Part shown: piece by piece, positions 3,243-16,972 of the stretch | Position numbering within the stretch: the stretch's first letter is position 1 | Layout of the letters: every line of letters begins with the position of its first letter | Source: a virus | Lineage: Duplodnaviria > Heunggongvirae > Uroviricota > Caudoviricetes | Direction: 5' to 3' (one strand) | IMG/VR virus record: IMGVR_UViG_2693429635_000010 | Length of the DNA stretch: 16,972 bases | Position numbers and translations under genes: made by a program | Notes under the pieces: generated by a model | What the model saw: only the letters and a program-made list of their open reading frames with translations | Told to the model about the DNA's origin: nothing | Databases searched by the model: none

Positions 3243-3785
3243 TTATCGAAATGAATCGTGCATAGGTACATAAAGCATGTGTTCAGCCACGGCTAACCAA
3301 CCTGCAATACGTTTCTCACATGTGCTGAAACACCATTCCGGGTGAGTACGATTTAAACATTCTGCCATTTTTCTCTTACTCATTCCCCGTCCTTCGTACC
3401 TTTGCCGGAGAATATTGATTAGCCCGGGATATTCCCCAAGCACCTCACTGATAACGCGATCAATAATCAACGCCTCTGTGTCTGTACAATGTGACAACCA
3501 GCTCTTCTGCTTCCCTCTGGTCATATCCCGAAAAAATGCCTCAAGTTCCGGTTTTTCCAGCCCGGATTTCTTCATGCTGCGTAAAACCTCATTAACTGCT
3601 GTTTTCGTCAGCTTTTTCGAAACCAGTAACCGGTTAAACATATTTCCGGATTTACCCCCACCGATATACGACCACCGCCCCCACATCCGTAATTTCCCCT
3701 GGATCCAGACTGCTTCCAGCGTGTTCAGGCGTAAATGTTCGCCGCTTTTGCCTGTAATTTCCGGATATATCATATTTACGCTCAC
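3243..3785 (-). CDS. Late-gene antitermination protein Q (phage 21/82-type Q family)
   Basis: 180-aa ORF directly downstream of rusA with overlapping stop/start (GTGA), followed by the tR'-like terminator; N-terminal LRMWGRWSY motif resembles the ERWGAW motif I recall from QuuD-type Q proteins. Confidence 0.55.
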   Translation of the reverse strand: MSVNMIYPEITGKSGEHLRLNTLEAVWIQGKLRMWGRWSYIGGGKSGNMFNRLLVSKKLTKTAVNEVLRSMKKSGLEKPELEAFFRDMTRGKQKSWLSHCTDTEALIIDRVISEVLGEYPGLINILRQRYEGRGMSKRKMAECLNRTHPEWCFSTCEKRIAGWLAVAEHMLYVPMHDSFR

Positions 3786-4141
3786 TCACTCTCAATTTTG
3801 TAAATCTTCACACCCAGCCGTCCACCAGATACTGGCTGACCACGTACAATATTGATTTCATCAAACTGCTCGTCATCAATGAGCACTCCCGCATGCGTCA
3901 GCGCATCCAGCGGTGCTTTCAGAATATTGTCCAGGTCACGACGACGCTTATCCGGTGGCTCTGCAATAATTTTTATTGCCAGCCGTCCGGACAGGCTTAA
4001 TTTCAGTCGCTGCTGGCGAACAATAAGCGCCACTGCCCGGCGATAACGCTCCCCGGCTTTTGATACAAAATATGTGCTGCCACGACGTCGCCAGTAAGTG
4101 TTCACTGTCGGCGGGTAAGGTAAAACCAAATCTATGAGCAT
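3782..4141 (-). CDS. rusA: Holliday-junction resolvase RusA
   Basis: 119-aa ORF with strong RBS (AGAGGTG, 5-nt spacer). Motifs LPYPPTVNTYWRRRG and RRRDLDN...DALTHAGVLIDDEQ match the RusA family as I recall the E. coli K-12 sequence. Confidence 0.8.
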   Translation of the reverse strand: MLIDLVLPYPPTVNTYWRRRGSTYFVSKAGERYRRAVALIVRQQRLKLSLSGRLAIKIIAEPPDKRRRDLDNILKAPLDALTHAGVLIDDEQFDEINIVRGQPVSGGRLGVKIYKIESE

Positions 4142-4153
4142 CAGTCACCTCTT

Positions 4154-5200
4154 TTACCCGAGCACGCCAGTCGCAAAGGCGTGATCAAGAAAACGAAAAA
4201 TTAACTCAATCTGAGAGCCGTACTTTTTCTCAAACTCCAGCGGGTCTGCATGAAGTTCGTTGTGGTGCTCCCGGCACAACGGTAACGTGAAAATATCGTG
4301 GGCCTTTGTCCCCATTCCCCCCTGACCATGACCAATCAGGTGATGCGGATCGTCAGCAGGCTTACCACAACACGCACACGGCTGTGTCTTCACCCAGCGC
4401 GTGTATTTCTCGTTAACCCAGCGGCGACGTTTAGGTCGTTTCATGAAAGATTCCGGAGACTCAGGATCAACGGCAATGCTGACCACCGTCTTTTCCTGTG
4501 GCGGGTTTTGCTGGTGGGCGTGAGGCAGCGGCGCAAGATTTTTTGTGCGCTGCTTCAGTATGCTGGTGGCGGTCTGCTCTCCCGGTACGATGTCGCTTTC
4601 ACGGTACATTGAGCGGATTTTTTCCGCACGCAACCCCAGCGAACGACGTAATACCGCTTCCGGTAGCGCGTCCGCCACCTGATTGCGGACCGCCCACCAG
4701 GATAATTCAGCCAGAGATAATTCCCGTTCCTGTGCACCACTTATTGCGTGACGTATGACGTCAATCATCCAGGCTGTCAGATTTTGTTGAGCAAGCTGCC
4801 CGAGTGATTCGGATGTCTGGTCGCGCAGCTGGTTGTCGCAGTGCCAGCACAACACCATTGCGCCGGTACCATAACGGTGAATGACGGTTTCACTGTGGTG
4901 ATAATCACCGTGTGGCCACTGGCAGGATTTAACATGGCGCAGTAACCAGTCAGACAATGCGCCAGCGCCACCAGCAGCACGAATCACTCGTTCGTCGCTG
5001 AAAAATGGCAGTAATGATTTATCCTCCGCCAGCGGCTGGCGAACGGCAGGAACGACCCCGGACGGCAGATTACGCATGCTTTTCGGTTCCGGCTCCACCA
5101 GTACCCGGGTATTGTGGAATACCGGCATGGATTCACGGCCCGGCTTAACGATCACCAGCCCGAGTTCCGGTACCAGAACAGGTCGAAGTAATACCCGCAC
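4154..5200 (-). CDS. DUF968-like (YdfU-like) nin-region protein with C-terminal Cys/His motif
   Basis: 348-aa ORF with GTG start and GGAGG 5 nt upstream; C-terminus carries CACCGKP...HHLIGHG...LCREHHNELH, a zinc-finger/HNH-like signature. Size and position match the DUF968 proteins of lambdoid prophages. Confidence 0.55.
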   Translation of the reverse strand: MRVLLRPVLVPELGLVIVKPGRESMPVFHNTRVLVEPEPKSMRNLPSGVVPAVRQPLAEDKSLLPFFSDERVIRAAGGAGALSDWLLRHVKSCQWPHGDYHHSETVIHRYGTGAMVLCWHCDNQLRDQTSESLGQLAQQNLTAWMIDVIRHAISGAQERELSLAELSWWAVRNQVADALPEAVLRRSLGLRAEKIRSMYRESDIVPGEQTATSILKQRTKNLAPLPHAHQQNPPQEKTVVSIAVDPESPESFMKRPKRRRWVNEKYTRWVKTQPCACCGKPADDPHHLIGHGQGGMGTKAHDIFTLPLCREHHNELHADPLEFEKKYGSQIELIFRFLDHAFATGVLG

Positions 5201-7983: not shown

Positions 7984-8406
7984 TCACAACAGCACCTTCT
8001 GAAAATTACCCTGATAGAAAGCCAGTACACGCTGCATAGCTTCGCTCTTCCGGCACTCGCTACAGATTATGTTCAGACGCCTGTCGTAGCGGCGTATTTC
8101 TCCGTCTGGTAATGACCAGATAAGATCCGGATCAACCACAGATGGTTTCTTCACCTTTGCCCTAGATAGTTTTTTGCGGGCATTTTGCCAGTCCTTACGA
8201 GCCTGTTCAGACGGGAATAACCCGTAACCAGAGTTGTATACATCGCCACTGGCAACCAGCTCTCTGGCGAGAACGCTCATCAGATATCTTGTCGCACCTG
8301 TCCTGGCTTCCAGTTGCCGTAACGTCTCGCGCCCACTCCGGCGTACTAGTTCAACAACCTGCCCTTTAATTTTTTCCCGCTCTTCTTGTGTAAATACTTT
8401 TGCCAT
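7984..8406 (-). CDS. Hypothetical protein (140 aa), paralogue of 15628..16050
   Basis: ATG at 8404-8406 with GGAGG 6 nt upstream (the track's TTG start at 8421 would overlap the RBS): MAKVFTQEEREKIKGQVVELVRRSGRETLRQLEARTGATRYLMSVLARELVASGDVYNSGYGLFPSEQARKDW...; ~90% identical to the right-hand copy. Confidence 0.55.
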   Translation of the reverse strand: MAKVFTQEEREKIKGQVVELVRRSGRETLRQLEARTGATRYLMSVLARELVASGDVYNSGYGLFPSEQARKDWQNARKKLSRAKVKKPSVVDPDLIWSLPDGEIRRYDRRLNIICSECRKSEAMQRVLAFYQGNFQKVLL

Positions 8407-8421
8407 AAGCGCCTCCGGCAA

Positions 8422-9192
8422 TCACTTTTCCGATACAACACGGCGGGAAGAATCAGTAATCTGTCGAACAATATCCCGGTGCTTGTTCAGCTCCCGCAGC
8501 GCGGCGCAGACTCGCTCCCACTTCTGAACATCACTTTTCGCCCTGCGCAGCGCCAGGTTTGCCCTGCGAAGGGACGGAAAAATCAGCTCATCTGCTTGCG
8601 TTTCGGTAAACGATGGCAACGGCTGCACAATGTCCGCCACAGTTTCTGTTTTAATTTCTTCCTGTGTTGCGGCTTCCCGGACTGGTAACGCAGCACCTGC
8701 TGGCTGAGGAAAGGCCTTACCATCACTTTCCGTTACCAGCGCGGCTTTCGGCTCTGCTGGTAAATTATCGCCCGGCATGCAGTAACGAAATTTACCGTTC
8801 TGATTAACGCGTGCCAGCCGCCCCGTTGCGGTTACCACCGCCAGCGTGGAAGCAACCTTGCGAGTACTGACACCGAACTTACCCGCCAGTTCCTCACACG
8901 TTTTAGCCCCATCCTGACCGATAAACTCAATCATCATGTCTGCGGTAACTTTTTGTTCGACCTCCCCGGTCAGCATATCCTGTGCTTCAGATTTTACTGG
9001 CCGCTCTTCGGTTACCCGGGATTCACCTTCGCCAGCCAGAAACCAGGTGTGACCAGTTTTATCAACGACGCCATTTCTTTTGAGTTCCCACAGCTCGTTG
9101 ACAGCCTCTTCACGACTGATTCCAAGGCTGGCCGCCACTACCTGTGAAGAGGCTCTTTTCAGTGCTTTCAGTGCGTCAAATACGGTTTCCAT
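8422..9192 (-). CDS. Hypothetical protein (256 aa) with winged-helix-like N-terminus
   Basis: ATG at 9190-9192 with GGAGG 8 nt upstream (track uses an upstream TTG at 9210). N-terminus METVFDALKALKRASSQVVAASLGISREEAVNELWELKRNGVV suggests a DNA-binding fold. Confidence 0.45.
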   Translation of the reverse strand: METVFDALKALKRASSQVVAASLGISREEAVNELWELKRNGVVDKTGHTWFLAGEGESRVTEERPVKSEAQDMLTGEVEQKVTADMMIEFIGQDGAKTCEELAGKFGVSTRKVASTLAVVTATGRLARVNQNGKFRYCMPGDNLPAEPKAALVTESDGKAFPQPAGAALPVREAATQEEIKTETVADIVQPLPSFTETQADELIFPSLRRANLALRRAKSDVQKWERVCAALRELNKHRDIVRQITDSSRRVVSEK

Positions 9193-9225
9193 TAATATTT
9201 CCTCCGACAAAATCGTTTCTCAGAT

Positions 9226-9888
9226 TCAAATAAAACCAGCTGCCTTCCGGCGTTCGTATTCCTGTTTCAGCCGTTCAATTGGCGTTGGCCCTTGCGGGTG
9301 TTTCGCCCCTTCCAGTTGTCGTCGCACTGGCGGAACACTCATCCCGTTACCAACATGCTTTGCCCATTTCGTCAGTTGCCGTTCCGCAAGTCGTTTTAAC
9401 TCACCCTGCGTCATCTGGCGCTCAATCCCTCTGGTACGCATTTCGAGGCAGATGTGGTACAGCACAGGCTGTGGCCACGGGTATTTATCACTCCCGTCGT
9501 ATCGCCAGGATTCATTGCGCCAGCGCCGGTACTCTTCCATCACTGCATCCACCGTAAGACCAAATGGATTTGCCCCACTCTCCGAAATCAGTGCAACAAA
9601 CTCAGCCAGGTCCGGGGGCCACGTTTCACCCGCCCGGCAGCGGTCCATGCACTGACGGCAGACCAGCCGGATTTGCTGTTCAGTCATCGCGCCAATCTGG
9701 GCAATCCAGAGCTTCGAAGGTGCGGCCCCGTTCTTCTGTGTCCAGCGGTTCGAATACACCTCCCCCATAAGCTCCCACAGCTTCCAGGCCGTTTCCGTTG
9801 CTGATAAATCCGTTGTCACGTTCCCACTGTTCGCGTGCTGCCCGGATTTCCTGAACTGCCCGTGATGCCGTGCCACCTGATGCTGCAT
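9226..9888 (-). CDS. Replication protein P-like (lambda P family, helicase loader)
   Basis: 220-aa ORF with RBS AAGGGGG 5 nt upstream. The blocks TEQQIRLV...TWPPDLAEFVALISE and VDAVMEEYRRW...YPWPQPVLYHICLEM...TQGELKRLAERQL...VPPVRRQL resemble lambda P as I recall it. No O-like gene lies directly upstream. Confidence 0.5.
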   Translation of the reverse strand: MQHQVARHHGQFRKSGQHANSGNVTTDLSATETAWKLWELMGEVYSNRWTQKNGAAPSKLWIAQIGAMTEQQIRLVCRQCMDRCRAGETWPPDLAEFVALISESGANPFGLTVDAVMEEYRRWRNESWRYDGSDKYPWPQPVLYHICLEMRTRGIERQMTQGELKRLAERQLTKWAKHVGNGMSVPPVRRQLEGAKHPQGPTPIERLKQEYERRKAAGFI

Positions 9889-9891
9889 GGC

Positions 9892-10053
9892 TTACCCCCT
9901 TGCTGACTGGTTAGACGGCAGATTACGCATGCTTTTCGGTTCCGGCTCCACCAGTACCCGGGTATTGTGGAATACCGGCATGGATTCACGGCCCGGCTTA
10001 ACGATCACCAGCCCGAGTTCCGGTACCAGAATAGGTCGAAGTAATACCCGCAC
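9892..10053 (-). pseudogene. Truncated 5' fragment of a DUF968-family gene (53 codons), recombination remnant
   Basis: GTG at 10051-10053 opens a frame encoding MRVLLRPILVPELGLVIVKPGRESMPVFHNTRVLVEPEPKSMRNLPS, nearly identical to the N-terminus of the 4154..5200 protein; it then diverges at the repeat boundary (9913/9914) and stops after 7 further codons, just upstream of the P-like gene. Confidence 0.5.
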
Positions 10054-10054
10054 G

Positions 10055-10333
10055 TTACCTCCAGATGCGTTGCTGGAATGTGCGGGACGGACGCGGTGGG
10101 CGTTCGGAGTAAGGAAGCCTGACGGAGATTATCCAGTGACGGTAGTCGAGGCTAAGGGCTTTTTTAACCTCGTATCCGCGCCTGCGGTAACACTGAATTA
10201 TCCATTCAGCCTGCTCTTCAGTGCATGGTGGATGCTGGAACCAGTCCGATTTGAATGCATGAAAACGCCGTCCGCACCTGCTGGCAAAGACGGCAGAATC
10301 ATCAGAATTGTGTAATTTGGTATCGTGCGCCAT
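10055..10333 (-). CDS. Hypothetical nin-region protein (92 aa), paralogue of 5202..5480
   Basis: Internal ATG of track ORF 10055..10444: MAHDTKLHNSDDSAVFASRCGRRFHAFKSDWFQHPPCTEEQAEWIIQCYRRRGYEVKKALSLDYRHWIISVRLPYSERPPRPSRTFQQRIWR. Confidence 0.45.
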   Translation of the reverse strand: MAHDTKLHNSDDSAVFASRCGRRFHAFKSDWFQHPPCTEEQAEWIIQCYRRRGYEVKKALSLDYRHWIISVRLPYSERPPRPSRTFQQRIWR

Positions 10334-10694
10334 CGGTTGTCTCTGCTGGCGCAGCAGGTGCCAGTTGTTCAGGCTGGCGTATAAAGTATAAATAAACTGG
10401 TTCCAGTGTAAAGCCCCTACATTAATGGAATAAAAGTCAAACAACAGATTGTTGGGATAAACACAACGCTTATTATTAAAAGCGATTAGATAAATTAAAT
10501 TTTAATGTTATGCAATTTTACCAGATCACCATAACATCTCGTTTGAAACCACCGAAACAACAACCATATCAATATTGATTATGTTAAAGTGAGTAAATAT
10601 GGAAAACAACAAATCTGCACATTACGCTCCTTTTTTATCTGTGATACTTTTTGTTTTATGCTGTGTGTGGGCATTATTTTTATAAAAATATTTA

Positions 10695-10723
10695 CAGATA
10701 AAATAAACCCGCCGAAGCGGGTT
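10695..10723 (-). terminator. hok mRNA 3' terminator (second copy)
   Basis: Same AACCCGC-UUCG-GCGGGUU hairpin as at 5562-5579, followed on the minus strand by UUUAUUU. Confidence 0.45.
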
Positions 10724-10791
10724 AAGTGCGGGTGCATTGAGGATGCCTGACACATCAGAGGTGGCGAGGGATTTCTCCCTCGCCGGGTCTC

Positions 10792-10947
10792 TTACTCCTC
10801 AGGTTCGTAAGCTGTGAAGACAGCGACCTCCGTCTGGCCGGTTCGGATTCGTACCTCGCAGAGGTCTTTCCTCGTTACCAGTGCCGTCACTATGACGGTT
10901 AAACAGATGACGATCAGGGCGATTAACATCGCCTTTTGCTGCTTCAT
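10792..10947 (-). CDS. hok: Hok-family type I toxin (51 aa), second copy
   Basis: Encodes the same 51-aa protein as 5648..5803, embedded in track ORF 10792..11004. Confidence 0.85.
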   Translation of the reverse strand: MKQQKAMLIALIVICLTVIVTALVTRKDLCEVRIRTGQTEVAVFTAYEPEE

Positions 10948-11136
10948 AGCCTGCTTCTCCTTGCCTTTCGGCACGTAAGAGGCTAACCTAGATTTGCCGT
11001 TCATAGATTGAGCCTCAGATTAATGTTAAGCGTCTTGCAGGACGCGTAATGTTAACTGGGGCTTTTCTCTATCTGCCGTTGGTGTTCATGCCTGAGACAG
11101 ATAGCCTCAAGCACCCGCAGCCATTCTACTTAACTC
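10948..11136. promoter_or_regulatory. hok mRNA leader / expected antisense Sok region (second copy)
   Basis: Near-identical to 5804..5993. Confidence 0.4.
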
Positions 11137-11158
11137 CCGTCACCTCGCCAATATGAAA

Positions 11159-11248
11159 TCAGTCAGAAAGGCGATCCATAAGAACAACAGCAAGGCAATA
11201 AATTGCCATTACAGCAGCAATAGCCAGCGCACATTTGAGAACCAGCAC
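11159..11248 (-). CDS. Small hydrophobic peptide (29 aa), homologue of 6050..6154, not in the ORF track
   Basis: AGGAGG then GTG (5-nt spacer): (M)LVLKCALAIAAVMAIYCLAVVLMDRLSD. Shares the A-rich hydrophobic core and LMDRL C-terminal motif with the copy-A peptide; lies in a different frame from the Cys-rich track ORF 11163..11471. Confidence 0.3.
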   Translation of the reverse strand: MLVLKCALAIAAVMAIYCLAVVLMDRLSD

Positions 11249-11544
11249 CACAACCTCCTGTATTGGACGTACACCAGTCCTGATAAATATGAGGCTGTCT
11301 CGTCAGTGATTCAATACAACTATTGGGTATAGTTTCTGTGATTTTGTTCTGTAGAAATGGAACACAACAACCAGTCACCACCAGCACTTCTTTAAATACG
11401 CCAAGTCCGACGCAAGCTAACCTTCTAGGCCGCTTTGAGCGAAGAGCGGACGCTCGCATCTGTCCCAACACACTGAGGGCTTCACGAACACCTAGGTGTA
11501 CTCGTCAACTGGGAAAAAGTCAGATTATCTGCGTAAGTTTCAGC

Positions 11545-11595: not shown

Positions 11596-14500
11596 CTATG
11601 TATCTGAGCCAAACATAGAGCGCCGCCTTGTTATTTTATAATAAGTGGGATTTTCATTATCCACCTCAAAATCAGAGAAGAAGTGGTTATCTCTTAATGC
11701 TGTTAATAAACTTTGATTAGTTGAATCAACTTCAATTTTAGGTTTGCCTCGCCCCAAAATTTTACTGAACTCCGATAAACCAAGCAGATCAAGATACTCT
11801 TTGCAAGTCGTCTTACTCAAATCCTTACCCGGCAACAAAGCGATTAGCAGTGCTATTTTATTCTGCATATTCAGTCCCTCTGCGACAAACAGGTTTTTTA
11901 GTAACGGTTCAGAAACATCATTAGGACTTGCTATCAATGCTGATATATCCTGTATTGCTCGACTCAAGATGAGCGACTGAGTAGAGGTTCCCCAAGTTTT
12001 ATAAGATGACGTCAAGATTAGAAGTTCATCTGGTTTAAAATTATTTTCTAAAATATAGTCATTAACGACCTGAGAGTAATTCTTACTATAAATAGCCAAC
12101 GGAGTTTTAACAAACTCGAGTAGCTTAACTTTCAAATCATCATCAACTTTCCAAGAAAGTATTGATATAGCCTCATCCAAAATAAAGTTATCAATCGTCA
12201 TTAATTCAACGTATGCCCTGATATTCTTATGAATATAATAGGAAAGTTGCTCTGAATAGTTATCTCGTATGAAATTAAGTGGCGCAACATTCATACGAAT
12301 AATATTTTTATCCACTAATATTTTGAACTTATCACTCGCGATATCACTAGCGCTAAAGGATGTTTTACAAATAATATTTAGTGAGCAAATTAATTTTTCA
12401 TATTTATCATTTGATAAATCATTACAGATAACAATCGATTTAAATAATTTACCTTTAAGCTCGTTATCAATATTAATATTTTGAAAATTCAGGTCTACAT
12501 CAGTTCTATTGATAAATTCGATAAGTGAGTCATCCAGTCCATCAACATGTTCAAAATAAGAGACAATATTTTCCTCAGAGCACACTGCTCTATCTTTATC
12601 CAACAAAGATGACCATAAAGATTCGCTCTCAACCTCACTCAGAGATGTCACGAAAGTTTGCAAAGCGTTTATATACTGGCCTTTTTGTTCATCAGATATT
12701 CCCTCATTATTAAGAACGGATAAAACAATGGATTCATCATCCACGATTGAACCATCACAACTAGATAAAACCATATCCAGATAGTCCCTAATATGGTTAT
12801 TAACATAACTAGCCAAGGGAGAATCAGGTTGTGACATCACTAGTGTATAGTTCTTATGGCGAATATCATCTTCACTATTAAGCGTGTAAACCTTACTCAG
12901 CATTAAGGTCAGGTTGGAAAAATTAATATCATAAAGTGAATGCTGGTAAACCGCATCAAAGAGTACTTTATTTGCGTTTTCAAATTTAATACTGACAAAA
13001 GAGACGTTAAGCAACTTAAAACCACTAATTAATTTGTCAACCTTTGGTTCTGATATTGCTAAATAACCTGCCGAATCAGAGATGTAATCAGTCAGACAAT
13101 CATCAATATTAATGGCCTCGATGGCGTCATTGGCAGAATAATAAAACGTGCCTATAGAGTAGAGTTTAACCCAATCAGCAGAAAATTCACTCTCTGTCAG
13201 CGCATAAGAAAAAAACTCAGGCCACTGTGTATTTAATCGATTAATGAAGACAGGCTGAGCCCTCTCAGTTTCAAAGTAACCACGAATAAACTCAACTCTT
13301 CTATCTTTTCTTAGTTGTTTGAATAAACGTTTTATTAAGTTTACCAGGGCTGGCGTTTGAAGCAGATAAGCTAATAAATCAAAATTAAGCGCCTCTTCCT
13401 GTTCAAAATCCACTTCTCGAAGGCGGGCAACGACCAGCTTGGGGTTCTTGAGTTGATAAGTGAACTCTTTGCCTTTTTGATCGGTAATGCTGCGTAAAAA
13501 CATCTTATCAATTCGACTCAGGCTATTTTCATAAAAATAGGTCATATAGTCGGTATAGGTTTCATCAATATAACCATCACGAATAAGGTATTTAAGCAAG
13601 TCAAAATACTCACTGCTTTTTATTTCATTAAAGTCTCTTTCCTCTCCAATTTCATTGGTATAGGTGAGTTTAAATATTTCATCAATGTTTTCTCTAGTTA
13701 TTACTTCTTTAAGTCTTTTGTTTCTAGAATCAACCAAACTTTCTCTTGATCTTGATATAAGCTCATTAATTTCTTCTATTTTACCATTAAATTTATTTTC
13801 AACACTTTCTTTTCTAGCCGCCCTTCTCTTTGCTATATCAGCTTTCTCAGCCTGATTATAGTGAGGATGATTATTATATCTAGATAATTCCTTATCGTAT
13901 ATAGCATCAACCTCCTGACTAGAGTTGAGTATTTCATCATTGATTGCCTCAATCTCTTTTTTTCTATCTCTAATATCTTTTTCTATTTTCTTTATTTCTT
14001 CAATAATAAGGTTGTCTTTTTCACTAAATATGGTATAAACCATACCTTGATTAAGTTGCAACTCACTAAAATCTCTTGGGAAAATATTCTTATAGGCAAT
14101 AATGGCCAACATTTTATTACAGTCAAGTTCTGTCGTGTTTAATTTGTTATAATAAATTTGAAATTCGTTATAAATATTCTTCAATATTCTCATATCATCA
14201 ATATATAAAGACATCCCTTGTAGAAATCTTTCATTGAACAACTTGAGAATACCACCACCATCAAAATGTGTGATAAACTGATCGTAAGAGTTAGAACTAT
14301 CAACAACAGGAATAACTGGAATGATATAATCAAAGAATTTGGTTCTATCCTTCGAAATGAAGATATCATCACGAAGCAAGTAAATAAAACGTAACGTCGA
14401 TTTCTTGTGCCCTGCTGTGTCCCGTTGAATATTAACCAGTCTGTTAACCTCATGAAGACGTTCAAAGATGTTATTACTATTAAAACGGTCCATGTCTTCA

Positions 14501-15228
14501 AAAACAATGGCATCAGCATCAACGTTCTCGAAAAGGTACAATACTTCATTTAAATATCTATCGAAATAAGACTCGTTACTTTCTTCAAAAATCTCTATTT
14601 CATTACCCTGTAAATTTATTTTCTTAAGAACATTACGATTCTTTTGGGTTTTTATTAACTTGTAAATGAAAATACAAGATAGGATAGTACATATAAACCC
14701 ACTAATTAAAAGCGTATCGTATTTAGTTGATAATGTAAGTAGTGTCTTTATATTACCTTCAGATAAAAGTGAAACAAACTTTTCCCACTTATTAAATAGC
14801 GTGATATGTAGTATCATAGCGATAAATAACACCGTAAAGATGGTGTTTATCACAATGTTGTTAGTTTTTATTTTTTTCTTTACTTTAAAATGTGTCTGGG
14901 GAATATCATCAGCATTAATTTGGTGAATTAACTGGTTAAGAACTTTACCTTCTAACGCGGTTTCATTTATATCTTTACTTGGTTCATTAGTTTCAGCTTC
15001 CTCAATCGATCTGAAATGAGCAAGTGAGATATGAACAAACTTTATATTTGAATGACTTTTCTTATAGGATTCGATAAGACTACTTTTTCCTGCGCTATAT
15101 TGCCCTGATATCGCAACATTTTTTAGATCGTTATTGGCAAAAACAAAATCTATCGCATTTTTATATACACCCAGCTCAACATCGCTGAACGGCGTTAACT
15201 TTTGAAATTTATAGCTATCATCACTCAT
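11596..15228 (-). CDS. Large KAP-type P-loop NTPase (1210 aa): Walker A, two hydrophobic helices, Walker B, coiled-coil region and ~700-aa C-terminal region of unknown function; candidate defence/abortive-infection protein
   Basis: Single uninterrupted 3.6-kb ORF, ATG at 15226-15228 with AAGGGA RBS. Walker A SGQYSAGKSS (aa 41-50); hydrophobic helices NIVINTIFTVLFIAMILHITLF (~aa 124-145) and LLISGFICTILSCIFIYKLI (~aa 171-192); Walker-B-like DAIVFEDMD (~aa 238-246); K/E-rich coiled-coil-like stretch ~aa 400-510. Gene body is visibly AT-rich relative to the flanks. Confidence 0.7.
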   Translation of the reverse strand: MSDDSYKFQKLTPFSDVELGVYKNAIDFVFANNDLKNVAISGQYSAGKSSLIESYKKSHSNIKFVHISLAHFRSIEEAETNEPSKDINETALEGKVLNQLIHQINADDIPQTHFKVKKKIKTNNIVINTIFTVLFIAMILHITLFNKWEKFVSLLSEGNIKTLLTLSTKYDTLLISGFICTILSCIFIYKLIKTQKNRNVLKKINLQGNEIEIFEESNESYFDRYLNEVLYLFENVDADAIVFEDMDRFNSNNIFERLHEVNRLVNIQRDTAGHKKSTLRFIYLLRDDIFISKDRTKFFDYIIPVIPVVDSSNSYDQFITHFDGGGILKLFNERFLQGMSLYIDDMRILKNIYNEFQIYYNKLNTTELDCNKMLAIIAYKNIFPRDFSELQLNQGMVYTIFSEKDNLIIEEIKKIEKDIRDRKKEIEAINDEILNSSQEVDAIYDKELSRYNNHPHYNQAEKADIAKRRAARKESVENKFNGKIEEINELISRSRESLVDSRNKRLKEVITRENIDEIFKLTYTNEIGEERDFNEIKSSEYFDLLKYLIRDGYIDETYTDYMTYFYENSLSRIDKMFLRSITDQKGKEFTYQLKNPKLVVARLREVDFEQEEALNFDLLAYLLQTPALVNLIKRLFKQLRKDRRVEFIRGYFETERAQPVFINRLNTQWPEFFSYALTESEFSADWVKLYSIGTFYYSANDAIEAINIDDCLTDYISDSAGYLAISEPKVDKLISGFKLLNVSFVSIKFENANKVLFDAVYQHSLYDINFSNLTLMLSKVYTLNSEDDIRHKNYTLVMSQPDSPLASYVNNHIRDYLDMVLSSCDGSIVDDESIVLSVLNNEGISDEQKGQYINALQTFVTSLSEVESESLWSSLLDKDRAVCSEENIVSYFEHVDGLDDSLIEFINRTDVDLNFQNINIDNELKGKLFKSIVICNDLSNDKYEKLICSLNIICKTSFSASDIASDKFKILVDKNIIRMNVAPLNFIRDNYSEQLSYYIHKNIRAYVELMTIDNFILDEAISILSWKVDDDLKVKLLEFVKTPLAIYSKNYSQVVNDYILENNFKPDELLILTSSYKTWGTSTQSLILSRAIQDISALIASPNDVSEPLLKNLFVAEGLNMQNKIALLIALLPGKDLSKTTCKEYLDLLGLSEFSKILGRGKPKIEVDSTNQSLLTALRDNHFFSDFEVDNENPTYYKITRRRSMFGSDT

Positions 15229-15309
15229 TGATATCCCTTCCCAATCTTCACCGAGAGAGCTGGCTTTCGGAGTTAATCAAACAAAATCATGCAGATAAAA
15301 TTTCGCCTT

Positions 15310-15345
15310 ATTATAGCAGACACAACTGCAAAGATTAGCTAAAGC
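15310..15345 (-). promoter_or_regulatory. Putative promoter of the NTPase gene (extended -10 type)
   Basis: Minus-strand TGcTATAAT (hexamer complementary to 15310-15315, TG complementary to 15317-15318), ~85 nt upstream of the start codon; no convincing -35, as is typical for extended -10 promoters. Confidence 0.35.
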
Positions 15346-15627
15346 CTCGTTGTTTTCTTCATCTATCCCTATAATTTTACACTACAGTTAGCACTTACTA
15401 TACCTGAAAGCTTTGCTCGTAAAGAGCACAATCGCAAGTCAGCAAAGCACGACTTTGCAATCGAGCGCCGCTAAAACAGTGCTGAATCGCTACGACTTAG
15501 GCAGCCATCTTATCGGTTGGCAGATAATTTCTAACTTCCGCTTCTGGCACAAAGCGGACAACCACGATAGCTCTATCCTGTGCCACAAAATGTCAATTCA
15601 CATCTTAACTAATGCATTTTAATCTCG

Positions 15628-16050
15628 TCACTTTAATAAATACCGAACATTCCCCTGATAAAACGACAATATGCGCTGCATAACTTCGCTTTTACGACAC
15701 TCAGTACAAATTATATTATGATGCCTGTCGTAACGACGTATTTCTCCATCAGGTAATGACCAGATAAGGTCCGGATCAACCGCAGATGGTTTCTTCAGCT
15801 TTGCCCTTGAGAGCTTTTTACGGGCATTTTGCCAGTCCTTACGCGCCTGTTCAGACGGGAATAACCCGTAACCAGAATTGTATACATCACCGCTGGCAAC
15901 CAGCTCTCTCGCGAGAACGCTCATCAGATATCTTGTCGCACCTGTCTTGACTTCCAGTTGTCGTAACGTCTCACGCCCACTCTGGCGTACGAGTTCAACA
16001 ACCTGCCCTTTAATTTTTTCTCGCTCTTCTTGTGTAAATACTTTTGCCAC
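15628..16050 (-). CDS. Hypothetical protein (140 aa), paralogue of 7984..8406
   Basis: GTG start with AGGAGG 4-5 nt upstream: MAKVFTQEEREKIKGQVVELVRQSGRETLRQLEVKTGATRYLMSVLARELVASGDVY... Confidence 0.55.
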   Translation of the reverse strand: MAKVFTQEEREKIKGQVVELVRQSGRETLRQLEVKTGATRYLMSVLARELVASGDVYNSGYGLFPSEQARKDWQNARKKLSRAKLKKPSAVDPDLIWSLPDGEIRRYDRHHNIICTECRKSEVMQRILSFYQGNVRYLLK

Positions 16051-16090
16051 AAGTCCTCCTGAAAATTACCTCATGACCTGAAATAAACAC

Positions 16091-16972
16091 TTACCCCCTG
16101 AAGCCCGGCGGAATTTCGGTATCCGGTTCAGAAATATGATTCACACAACGCTGGTTGTTCGTGCCGTTTACCGGGAGCAACCAGGGGTTTTCAAAATTCC
16201 GGTCCGGTCCAAAAAACGTCGTCGCTCGCTGAACAAATTCCGTTCCCGTTTTCCCGGTAACCGCTAGGTATCTTGCGTAACGCCTCACGCCATCCAGCAT
16301 GGCCTCTGGTGGCACCCCCTCGCGTAATCTGGCCTTCCAGGCACTGAAAGCGGATTTCTTCGGGTTTGCCCCGGCACGCAACGGGTACTCCCGCCAGATC
16401 TGTTCGAACACATCCGGATAATCCACTCGTCCCACAGACTGCCCGGTGTTTTCCGGGACTACCCGATCGGCTTCCCGCTGAATGGCGGAATCGGCTTCGG
16501 GCTGCCGCAGTTGGTGTGATTGCTCCGGCCTTGCGGTCATCACCTGCTGCACAGCGCCCGAATCGGCTTTCAGCGCATACGCTGAATCGGCTTCCGGTGT
16601 CGTGCCTGCTGGCTGACCAGGATTGACGGTCTGAACATCCCCTGCCTGGTTCGTGGCGTTTTTTACGCCATGGACCATAGTGTTTTGATCTTCTTGATCT
16701 GTATCTTTATCTGTATCTTTATCTGTCGTGACTCGTCGTGACATGTGCGTGACATTTCGTGACGCGCCGTGACAATCGCCATTTTGTTCCCGCTTTCTTT
16801 CCCTCTCTCGCTGCGCCCTCTTGCGCTCTGCAGGAGATTTTGCGGTTTGCGAAATATTGCCGTTGTCCTCTTTCAGCACCTGGCGTTTTTCCCATCCAGT
16901 GATTAAATCACCATCAAGTACCCGCCCCTGCATCGTCTGCAAAATTGAATCAATTACCTCTTCTGTCACGTC
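16091..16972 (-). CDS. Replication-initiator-like protein (lambda-O-like organisation: acidic linker encoded by an iteron array, conserved C-terminal domain); 5' end outside the window
   Basis: Frame is open to the right window edge (codon at 16970-16972 is in frame), so the track's GTG at 16969 is not necessarily the start. Internal DNA repeats encode ...SRRVTTDKDTDKDTDQEDQ...; C-terminal domain DYPDVFEQIWREYPLRAGANPKKSAFSAWKARL...FFGPDRNFENPWLLP. The family call rests on gene position and repeat structure, not a confirmed homology. Confidence 0.45.
   Translation of the reverse strand, partial: DVTEEVIDSILQTMQGRVLDGDLITGWEKRQVLKEDNGNISQTAKSPAERKRAQRERERKREQNGDCHGASRNVTHMSRRVTTDKDTDKDTDQEDQNTMVHGVKNATNQAGDVQTVNPGQPAGTTPEADSAYALKADSGAVQQVMTARPEQSHQLRQPEADSAIQREADRVVPENTGQSVGRVDYPDVFEQIWREYPLRAGANPKKSAFSAWKARLREGVPPEAMLDGVRRYARYLAVTGKTGTEFVQRATTFFGPDRNFENPWLLPVNGTNNQRCVNHISEPDTEIPPGFRG
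16685..16773. repeat. Iteron-like array (putative replication origin) inside the initiator-like gene
   Basis: Five CGTGAC motifs starting at 16727, 16737, 16748, 16758 and 16768 (10-11 bp spacing, one per helical turn); two tandem 12-bp repeats ATCTGTATCTTT (16697-16720) plus a partial third; two GATC sites in TTGATC repeats (16685-16699). Confidence 0.5.

Follow-up and report, generated by a model that had tools for sequence, protein, structure and literature searches.

The origin of phage lambda encodes the inter-domain linker of the initiator O, and the lambda iterons are ~18-19 bp long with dyad symmetry. In pSC101, R6K and P1, iterons of ~17-22 bp are located outside the initiator gene, and separate iteron clusters can pair. 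Within the lambda genome, ori-lambda, made up of iterons and an AT-rich tract, occupies the middle part of gene O (PMC7466680). Phage SPP1 carries oriL within gene 38, with direct repeats as well as an AT-rich DNA-unwinding element (DUE), and the replisome organizer G38P binds two regions (PMC6316719). For the prophage Rac an active origin, oriJ, has been reported (PMC3945230), and oriJ plasmids have also been cited. In this study, we analyzed a stretch of 16,972 bp from a virus of the Caudoviricetes (IMG/VR record IMGVR_UViG_2693429635_000010; the whole stretch is referred to as the window), in which a phased repeat array lies within a replication-initiator gene. The class of origins embedded in initiator genes is already well known; the present candidate is newly added to it and uncharacterised. 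From comparative sequence analysis, positions 16647-16773 are probably the replication origin of this prophage, or the core of it, embedded in its own initiator gene. An earlier reading made from the letters of the window alone (the sequence-only reading) had suggested an origin inside this gene, and this suggestion is now supported by comparison of relatives, by the position of the least stable 40-mer, by gene position and by the initiator family.

The window contains the 3′ 882 nt of the initiator gene (16091-16972, minus strand; codons 64-356 and the stop codon), recognized by its translation and by a match to PHROG 3729 'replication initiation protein' (E 1.8e-207). The gene is truncated by the window end, with its first 63 codons outside the window, and the full gene of 1071 bp (356 amino acids) is found in the 100%-identical sequence of E. 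coli ST2350 (NZ_CP031321.1). A start of the open reading frame (ORF) inside the window (16969/16972), as assumed by the sequence-only reading, had to be corrected, since the gene continues past the window end. Within this gene, the linker iteron array (16727-16773) consists of five direct copies of CGTGAC (GTCACG on the coding strand) starting at 16727, 16737, 16748, 16758 and 16768. The spacing of 10, 11, 10 and 10 bp was obtained by reading the sequence and by pattern search, both of which recovered the copies listed earlier. Their suggested location on one face of the helix was confirmed, with a mean spacing of 10.25 bp and all five copies within ~35 degrees of one helical face. Only seven other CGTGAC copies were found on both strands of the window by pattern search, and in a scan for any hexamer the array was the sole chain of at least three copies at 10-11-bp steps. 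In 300 dinucleotide-preserving shuffles of the window, 298 gave no such chain, two gave a chain of three and none gave a chain of four or more.

The repeats are located inside the coding sequence (CDS), as had been stated: the minus-strand frame reads through them as ...CHGASRNVTHMSRRVTTDKDTDKDTDQEDQNTMVHG..., and the array corresponds to codons 130-146 (CDS nt 389-435). In the initiator ORF, these direct repeats are located between the parts for the DNA-binding and partner-binding domains, and we regard the linker array as putative binding sites of the N-terminal domain of the initiator. Motif, number and spacing of the array are identical in 74 of 80 IMG/VR copies; the matches of the viral-contig scan were only 100%-identical E. 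coli copies, which inform population counts and not divergence.

Directly beside the repeats, an easily melted A+T-rich tract was found (16683-16726), which is a putative DUE. Of all 40-mers in the gene, the one beginning at 16683 is the least stable, with a free energy (dG) of -43.4 compared to a gene mean of -57.4 (standard deviation, sd, 3.8), thus 3.7 sd away. Between 16685 and 16726, A+T content is 71%, and 74% of the plus-strand bases are pyrimidines, hence the coding strand is purine-rich. The 12-bp unit ATCTGTATCTTT occurs here in two exact copies (16697-16708 and 16709-16720) and once more in incomplete form directly after them, and Tandem Repeats Finder (TRF) reported 16692-16726 with period 12, 2.9 copies and 95% matches. 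Thereby, two exact tandem 12-bp repeats beside the iterons (16697-16720) were re-found as described before, and so was a pair of GATC sites at 16687 and 16696, both within TTGATC. Among E. coli copies, the length of the A-rich tract differs by 6/12-bp steps.

A second array of the same motif is present in the full-length gene, 260 bp upstream of the linker array and 25-61 bp beyond the window end. It consists of four copies of GTCAC(G) at CDS nt 129, 139, 149 and 160 (spacing 10, 10 and 11). At the protein level, it corresponds to a low-confidence loop (residues 47-52) that separates two helices in the N-terminal domain. A single inverted iteron is located between the arrays (16965-16970, minus strand; CDS nt 192-197), reading CGTGAC on the coding strand within GACGTGACA. 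In coding sense, the anatomy is therefore array, inverted copy, array, A-rich tract and hairpin. In the 80 IMG/VR prophage copies, repeat numbers are near-constant at 4 + 5, and protein lengths differ by steps compatible with the 6/12-bp A-rich units.

The hairpin is an inverted repeat immediately distal to the A-rich tract (16647-16677), with 13-nt arms TGGTTCGTGGCGT and ACGCCATGGACCA and a 5-nt loop. As single-stranded DNA, it has a folding energy of -10.7 kcal/mol (z = -3.4). Ten distinct homologue sequences retain it; 2 of its pairs show compensatory change, and the covariation term is ~0. Pairing is restored in the Yersinia homologue, where Val is replaced by Ser in one arm and Glu by Gly in the other. 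The inverted repeat also encodes the conserved peptide NTxVHGxKxA, so that the constraint may act on DNA or on protein, and an origin-flanking hairpin is a possible interpretation. Read on the plus strand, the same repeat is a weak terminator-like site with the tail TAGTGTTTTG. The promoter and terminator scan yielded one promoter-like and one terminator-like site, with no excess over shuffles. No Rfam match was obtained in 15200-16972, and a known RNA element is thus not the explanation.

To follow the arrays across phages, relatives of the N-terminal domain were identified by tblastn and protein search, and 13 type-A genes were compared. Relatives were found in Aeromonas phage pAEv1818, Pseudomonas phage P7869, a Yersinia prophage, four metagenomic contigs, Ralstonia phage Firinga and cyanophage Cy-LDV1, and all of these have a phased array at the equivalent place of the linker, that of Cy-LDV1 being weak. 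An automated scan detected the pentamer core of the linker also in the upstream loop in nine of the 13 type-A genes, where it is almost absent from the rest of the gene; L102 was recognized by inspection as a tenth type-A gene with matching linker and upstream-loop motifs. The motif is GTCAC(G) where the N-terminal domain is at least 73% identical (E. coli, Yersinia, Aeromonas, Pseudomonas), and GTAACG, TAACGCA, CGAACGC or GCAACG in lineages with more divergent N-terminal domains. The 10-11-bp phasing is retained in genera of very different G+C content. The inverted copy, as GA(C/T)GTGAC(A/C/G), also occurs in the Aeromonas, Pseudomonas and Yersinia relatives, and L102 has two inverted copies 10 bp apart.

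In 11 of the 13 type-A genes and in Rac YdaU, the last iteron is succeeded by an equivalent purine-rich tract starting with (C/A)(T/C)AGATAAAGA. The Aeromonas, Pseudomonas, spring-water and metagenomic relatives carry this tract, and the Ralstonia and cyanophage tracts show a looser likeness. At least one GATC was found in the A-rich tracts of the enterobacterial and Aeromonas relatives and of Rac, and none in those of the Pseudomonas, Ralstonia, spring-water and cyanophage relatives. The GATC pair is not claimed here as an origin signal, because GAT (Asp) codons followed by C account for GATC equally well.

The C-terminal domain of the initiator is also fused to at least five further N-terminal domains (HTH_36 and others) in prophages of Enterobacterales and Burkholderiales. 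Tandem DNA repeats were detected in the linker of 11 of 13 such genes, with periods of 11, 15, 21-22 or 24 bp, followed in six of these genes by a short repeat of 12-13-bp period. Among the HTH_36 initiators, L109, L110, L114, L118 and L119 (Kosakonia, Phytobacter, Enterobacter and Paraburkholderia) have 21-22-bp linker repeats and then the repeat of 12-13-bp period; an example of the former is TGGTGCAGCAGTTTCACCACA (x3.9), which has internal dyad symmetry. The HTH_36-type linker repeats are probably further origins of the same design.

Several lines of evidence separate selection on DNA from selection on the peptide. The period of 10/11 bp is not a multiple of 3, so that successive copies read CH, SR and VT; with copies in three reading frames, selection cannot be acting on a repeated peptide. 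E. coli KE26 shares its N-terminal domain with the window and has five GTCACG copies in the linker at 10, 10, 11 and 10, while its linker peptide is CHDESRICHDMSRRVTT compared to CHGASRNVTHMSRRVTT in the window, and its C-terminal domain differs as well. The upstream array of KE26 has six copies due to a 21-bp frame-preserving insertion. One 10-bp iteron unit is deleted in E. coli VTB96815v (L004, NZ_CP178648.1, 2101-2561), where the gene is frameshifted and annotated as a pseudogene. Copy number therefore changes only in frame-preserving combinations, which fits the near-constant 4 + 5 arrangement. An O157-type class of N-terminal domains (MRDYAKVSPRFW...) is joined to the same C-terminal half and has AAGGGGCTT at 11-bp spacing in both N-terminal domain and linker. 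In strain cM8a of this class (L009, compared to L006), the linker has its copies in inverted orientation (AAGCCCCTT), where they specify an unrelated peptide. For codons with identical amino acids, the region of the upstream array was compared to the rest of the gene by Fisher test. Between E. coli and Pseudomonas, 14 of 17 such codons were identical in the upstream-array region and 23 of 56 elsewhere (p = 0.005), and the excess was also seen in the other two pairs (p = 0.013 and 0.016).

By frame rotation, peptide change, motif classes and synonymous conservation, the repeats are selected as DNA and covary with the DNA-binding domain. Repeat number and phasing are kept where the peptide changes (KE26), and the relatives show the opposite of a protein kept without its DNA repeats, which the sequence-only reading had named as the adverse case.

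In NZ_CP031321.1, the gene order is cI-like, cro/YdaS-like, YdaT-family, initiator and DUF977, and the position after cro/YdaT together with the PHROG assignment supports the reading as an initiator with its origin. The NCBI name of the protein is 'phage replisome organizer', with a cluster of 5786 member sequences, and RefSeq often labels it 'hypothetical protein'. Phages Tritos, Evi and several vB_Eco isolates have the gene at 94-97% identity, with phage records naming it variously replisome organiser, primosomal protein I or replication protein O. It was matched in 2737 of 5426 complete E. coli genomes, in 1646 of them with at least 80% coverage.

Searches against Pfam gave no match for the window fragment and no significant family for the full-length protein. 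No match to Phage_rep_O (PF04492, lambda O) was obtained for the full-length initiator even at E up to 1; thus, the analogy to lambda drawn by the sequence-only reading holds for the architecture and fails for family membership. Phage_rep_org_N (PF09681) scored 12.8 bits (cut-off 23.3, E 0.12) and TIGR01714 of NCBIfam 15.4 bits (cut-off 49.8, E 0.016). The sub-threshold alignments run almost from end to end of the profile (residues 5-122 aligned to positions 1-118 of 121), yet these hidden Markov model scores lie far under the curated cut-offs, and homology to an SPP1-type organizer is therefore unproven. Nine diverse N-terminal domains matched no Pfam family at E up to 0.01.

An AlphaFold model was poor overall (mean predicted local distance difference test, pLDDT, 54; predicted template modelling score, pTM, 0.29) and was used for domain boundaries only. 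In this model, residues 1-91 form a helical domain that includes a beta-hairpin, and a basic helix (110-127), a disordered linker (128-244), a helical C-terminal domain (245-306) and a disordered tail come after it. The pLDDT is below 50 across residues 128-244, the region of the linker array, and both arrays map to a low-confidence loop or linker (47-52 and 128-244). The last 25 residues (…ISEPDTEIPPGFRG, window 16091-16170) are similar to the C-terminal end of DnaT, a replication-restart protein of the host, with matches to PRK02854 (E 0.0015, 18 bits at a cut-off of 201) and to PDB entries 6aep, 2ru8 and 9zbt (E 0.009-0.035); weak similarity to this tail was all that a PDB sequence search of the initiator returned. 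Identification of the protein as DnaT was rejected, as PF17948 is absent from the initiator and the likeness is limited to the last 25 residues. The IPPGFRG tail is common to initiators with unrelated N-terminal domains including Rac YdaU, usually accompanies a DnaC-like gene, and may be a peptide recruiting DnaC/DnaB.

By analogy with ori-lambda and SPP1 oriL, we infer the following sequence of events. Upon derepression, rightward transcription from the cro-side promoter would lead to synthesis of the initiator, whose winged-helix-like N-terminal domain would occupy the phased repeats in a cooperative manner along one face of the DNA. The initiator could possibly bridge the two arrays into an O-some-like complex. 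Distortion by the bound initiator would then melt the adjacent A-rich tract, and the C-terminal domain with its DnaT-like tail (…IPPGFRG) would recruit DnaB via a DnaC-type loader, which would here be host DnaC.

Several observations weigh against an origin at this locus or against parts of this scheme. No array was seen in Microcystis phage JY25, and in Cy-LDV1 the linker array was recognized by eye only and no clear array was found in the N-terminal part. The N-terminal domain remains below the curated cut-offs of every DNA-binding or replisome-organizer family, and Foldseek against PDB gave nothing below E = 1, the weak top matches including winged-helix regulators of MarR, ArsR and Rrf2 type. 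Close E. coli copies are 95-99% identical, so that conservation among them carries little weight. The second array may be a part of the origin or a control element. Given the missing cognate loader and the inserted cargo described below, the origin may also be inactive in this prophage. Literature searches gave no description of this initiator family or origin.

The explanation that competes best is that the repeats do bind the initiator, in the service of autoregulation or copy-number control (handcuffing or roadblock, comparable to plasmid control iterons or SPP1 oriR), and that the true origin is located elsewhere in the prophage. Two arrays with a shared motif, separated by 260 bp and with one array in the domain-coding part, would be in line with such control, as would the fact that transcription of the initiator gene passes through both arrays; SPP1 G38P likewise binds a second, distant site (PMC6316719). 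However, the linker array abuts the least stable tract, and the order of iterons followed by an A-rich tract, conserved across genera, is the signature of an initiation site and not that of a control locus. We consider this explanation unlikely for the locus as a whole; it could hold for the upstream array alone.

Still less probable, to a degree that we give it little credence, is an origin of the repeats as by-products of slippage or unequal recombination in a tolerant, low-complexity linker, without sequence-specific function, in a region that mainly serves as the junction for exchange of N- and C-terminal modules. Mosaic breakpoints do map to the A-rich tract (other prophages have matches ending at 16686 or starting at 16704), the number of 12-bp units differs between copies, and VTB96815v lost a 10-bp repeat. 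Such by-products cannot explain, however, why one hexamer is maintained in two arrays that change together between lineages, nor the excess of synonymous conservation, nor the 10-11-bp phasing at differing G+C content, and the inverted array still has the motif. Finally, reading of the array by another protein for transcription instead of replication (a host response regulator binding 10-11-bp direct repeats, RNA polymerase or another phage regulator) is the least credible explanation and can practically be set aside: a promoter-like GTGACA-16-GACAAT overlaps the array on the plus strand, the TGTCA core presumably resembles half a PhoB box and GTGACA a -35 hexamer, but the count of promoter-like sites is 1 compared to a shuffle mean of 0.4 (sd 0.6; 9/12 matches), and the motif becomes GTAACG, GCAACG or CGAACGC where the N-terminal domain has diverged, which fits a phage-encoded partner co-evolving with its sites and not a conserved host factor.

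With an origin within the initiator gene as the preferred interpretation, the paired arrays allow a further proposal. It is quite possible, if somewhat short of probable, that this initiator family uses a two-part origin in its own gene, composed of a linker array beside the unwinding element and a concerted array of the same hexamer in a loop of the DNA-binding domain that presumably recognizes it. Members of the family occur in Enterobacterales, Aeromonas, Pseudomonas and Ralstonia, in phages as well as prophages, and apparently also in one cyanophage. If the proposal is true, a looped or wrapped complex over ~260 bp or a built-in control element would be expected, and changes in binding-site specificity would rewrite part of the binding domain itself. 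Modestly novel aspects are the hexamer iterons of one helical turn, the concerted second array in the coding loop of the DNA-binding domain, and the breadth across bacterial orders. The paired arrays also provide a clean natural example of DNA-level and protein-level constraints on the same bases, and the deletion in VTB96815v illustrates how iterons of non-triplet length constrain changes in copy number.

Downstream of the initiator, a DUF977 gene (LygF or 'Ren-like'; 15628-16050, minus strand; PF06163 E 1.3e-29, PHROG 142) directly follows, at the place where relatives have a helicase-loader gene. In the 80 IMG/VR copies, DUF977 is next to the initiator in 68 and a DnaC-like ATPase in 6. Initiators with an IPPGFRG-type tail are followed by an IstB/DnaC-like ATPase in O145, O157, metagenomic relatives and Rac, and the Aeromonas phage initiator, with the tail ...KPPGFN, is followed by a DnaC-like loader gene. 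Lambda-P-like genes follow the KE26 initiator (DnaT-domain C-terminal type, PF17948) and the Yersinia homologue (extended C-terminus). As no loader gene follows the initiator here, such prophages would need to rely on host DnaC, or else their origin is inactive.

A second, partial replication module is located elsewhere in the window, consisting of a gene for a Phage_lambda_P-domain protein of 220 amino acids (9226-9888), a DUF1627 gene (8422-9210) and a second DUF977 copy (7984-8421), all on the minus strand. It has no initiator gene upstream, where hok/mok-, rem- and ydfU-like sequence is found (9900-11450). The P-like gene at 9226-9888, which the sequence-only reading had paired with the initiator, was rejected as cognate partner, since P-type genes follow the other C-terminal type (KE26, Yersinia); it is probably not the cognate loader and belongs to a different module type. 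The arrangement suggests a mosaic or recombinant prophage, in which crossover may have taken place at the duplicated DUF977 genes.

An ORF of 1210 amino acids (11596-15228, minus strand) with a YobI-like P-loop NTPase domain (PF20693, E 8e-123) separates the initiator-DUF977 pair from the hok-like region and is probably accessory or defence cargo. In the RefSeq annotation of NZ_CP031321.1, three hypothetical CDS cover this ORF, which is uninterrupted in the window. Genes for a DNA methylase (1604-2533), a Q-like antiterminator (DUF1133/Phage_antitermQ; 3243-3785), RusA (3782-4141) and a DUF968/HNH-like protein (4154-5200), all on the minus strand, confirm the lambdoid context as late-regulatory and nin-region genes. 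Knowledge of the origin would provide a defined cis element, with which these prophages, many of them without a loader gene, can be checked for replication, read-depth peaks upon induction interpreted, and replicons built. It would likewise help to learn in what way host DnaC and DnaB might be used by an initiator that has a DnaT-like tail.

Compared to known systems, the locus combines features of several. With ori-lambda (gene O; also Stx phages 933W and P27) it shares the location in the middle of the initiator gene and direct repeats followed by an AT-rich tract, as well as an initiator gene after cro/cII, a repeat region encoding the inter-domain linker, repeats that covary with the N-terminal domain and a C-terminal domain that covaries with the helicase-loading partner. 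Unlike in lambda, the protein does not belong to Phage_rep_O, a P gene is missing downstream, and elsewhere this C-terminal type is found together with DnaC-like ATPases; the repeat core measures 6 bp, with a 10-11-bp period and no internal dyad, and a second array is located 260 bp upstream in the region coding for the DNA-binding domain. The likeness to SPP1 oriL consists of direct repeats as well as an AT-rich unwinding element inside the gene of the organizer and of two separate repeat regions. The second site is, however, 260 bp away in the same gene and not kilobases, and SPP1 encodes loader and helicase, whereas this prophage does not.

With Rac, the common features are a gene following ydaS/ydaT, the IPPGFRG tail, and linker repeats followed by the near-identical element AATAAAGATACAGATAAAGATC. 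The N-terminal domain of YdaU differs in being DUF1376, its repeats are GATGTTCAAACA-like and not GTCACG, and a DnaC-like YdaV comes next. We infer that oriJ lies within ydaU; the mapped oriJ sequence was not found. As in pSC101, R6K and P1, phased direct repeats for a replicon-encoded initiator stand beside an AT-rich unwinding element, but here as 6-bp cores within the coding sequence.

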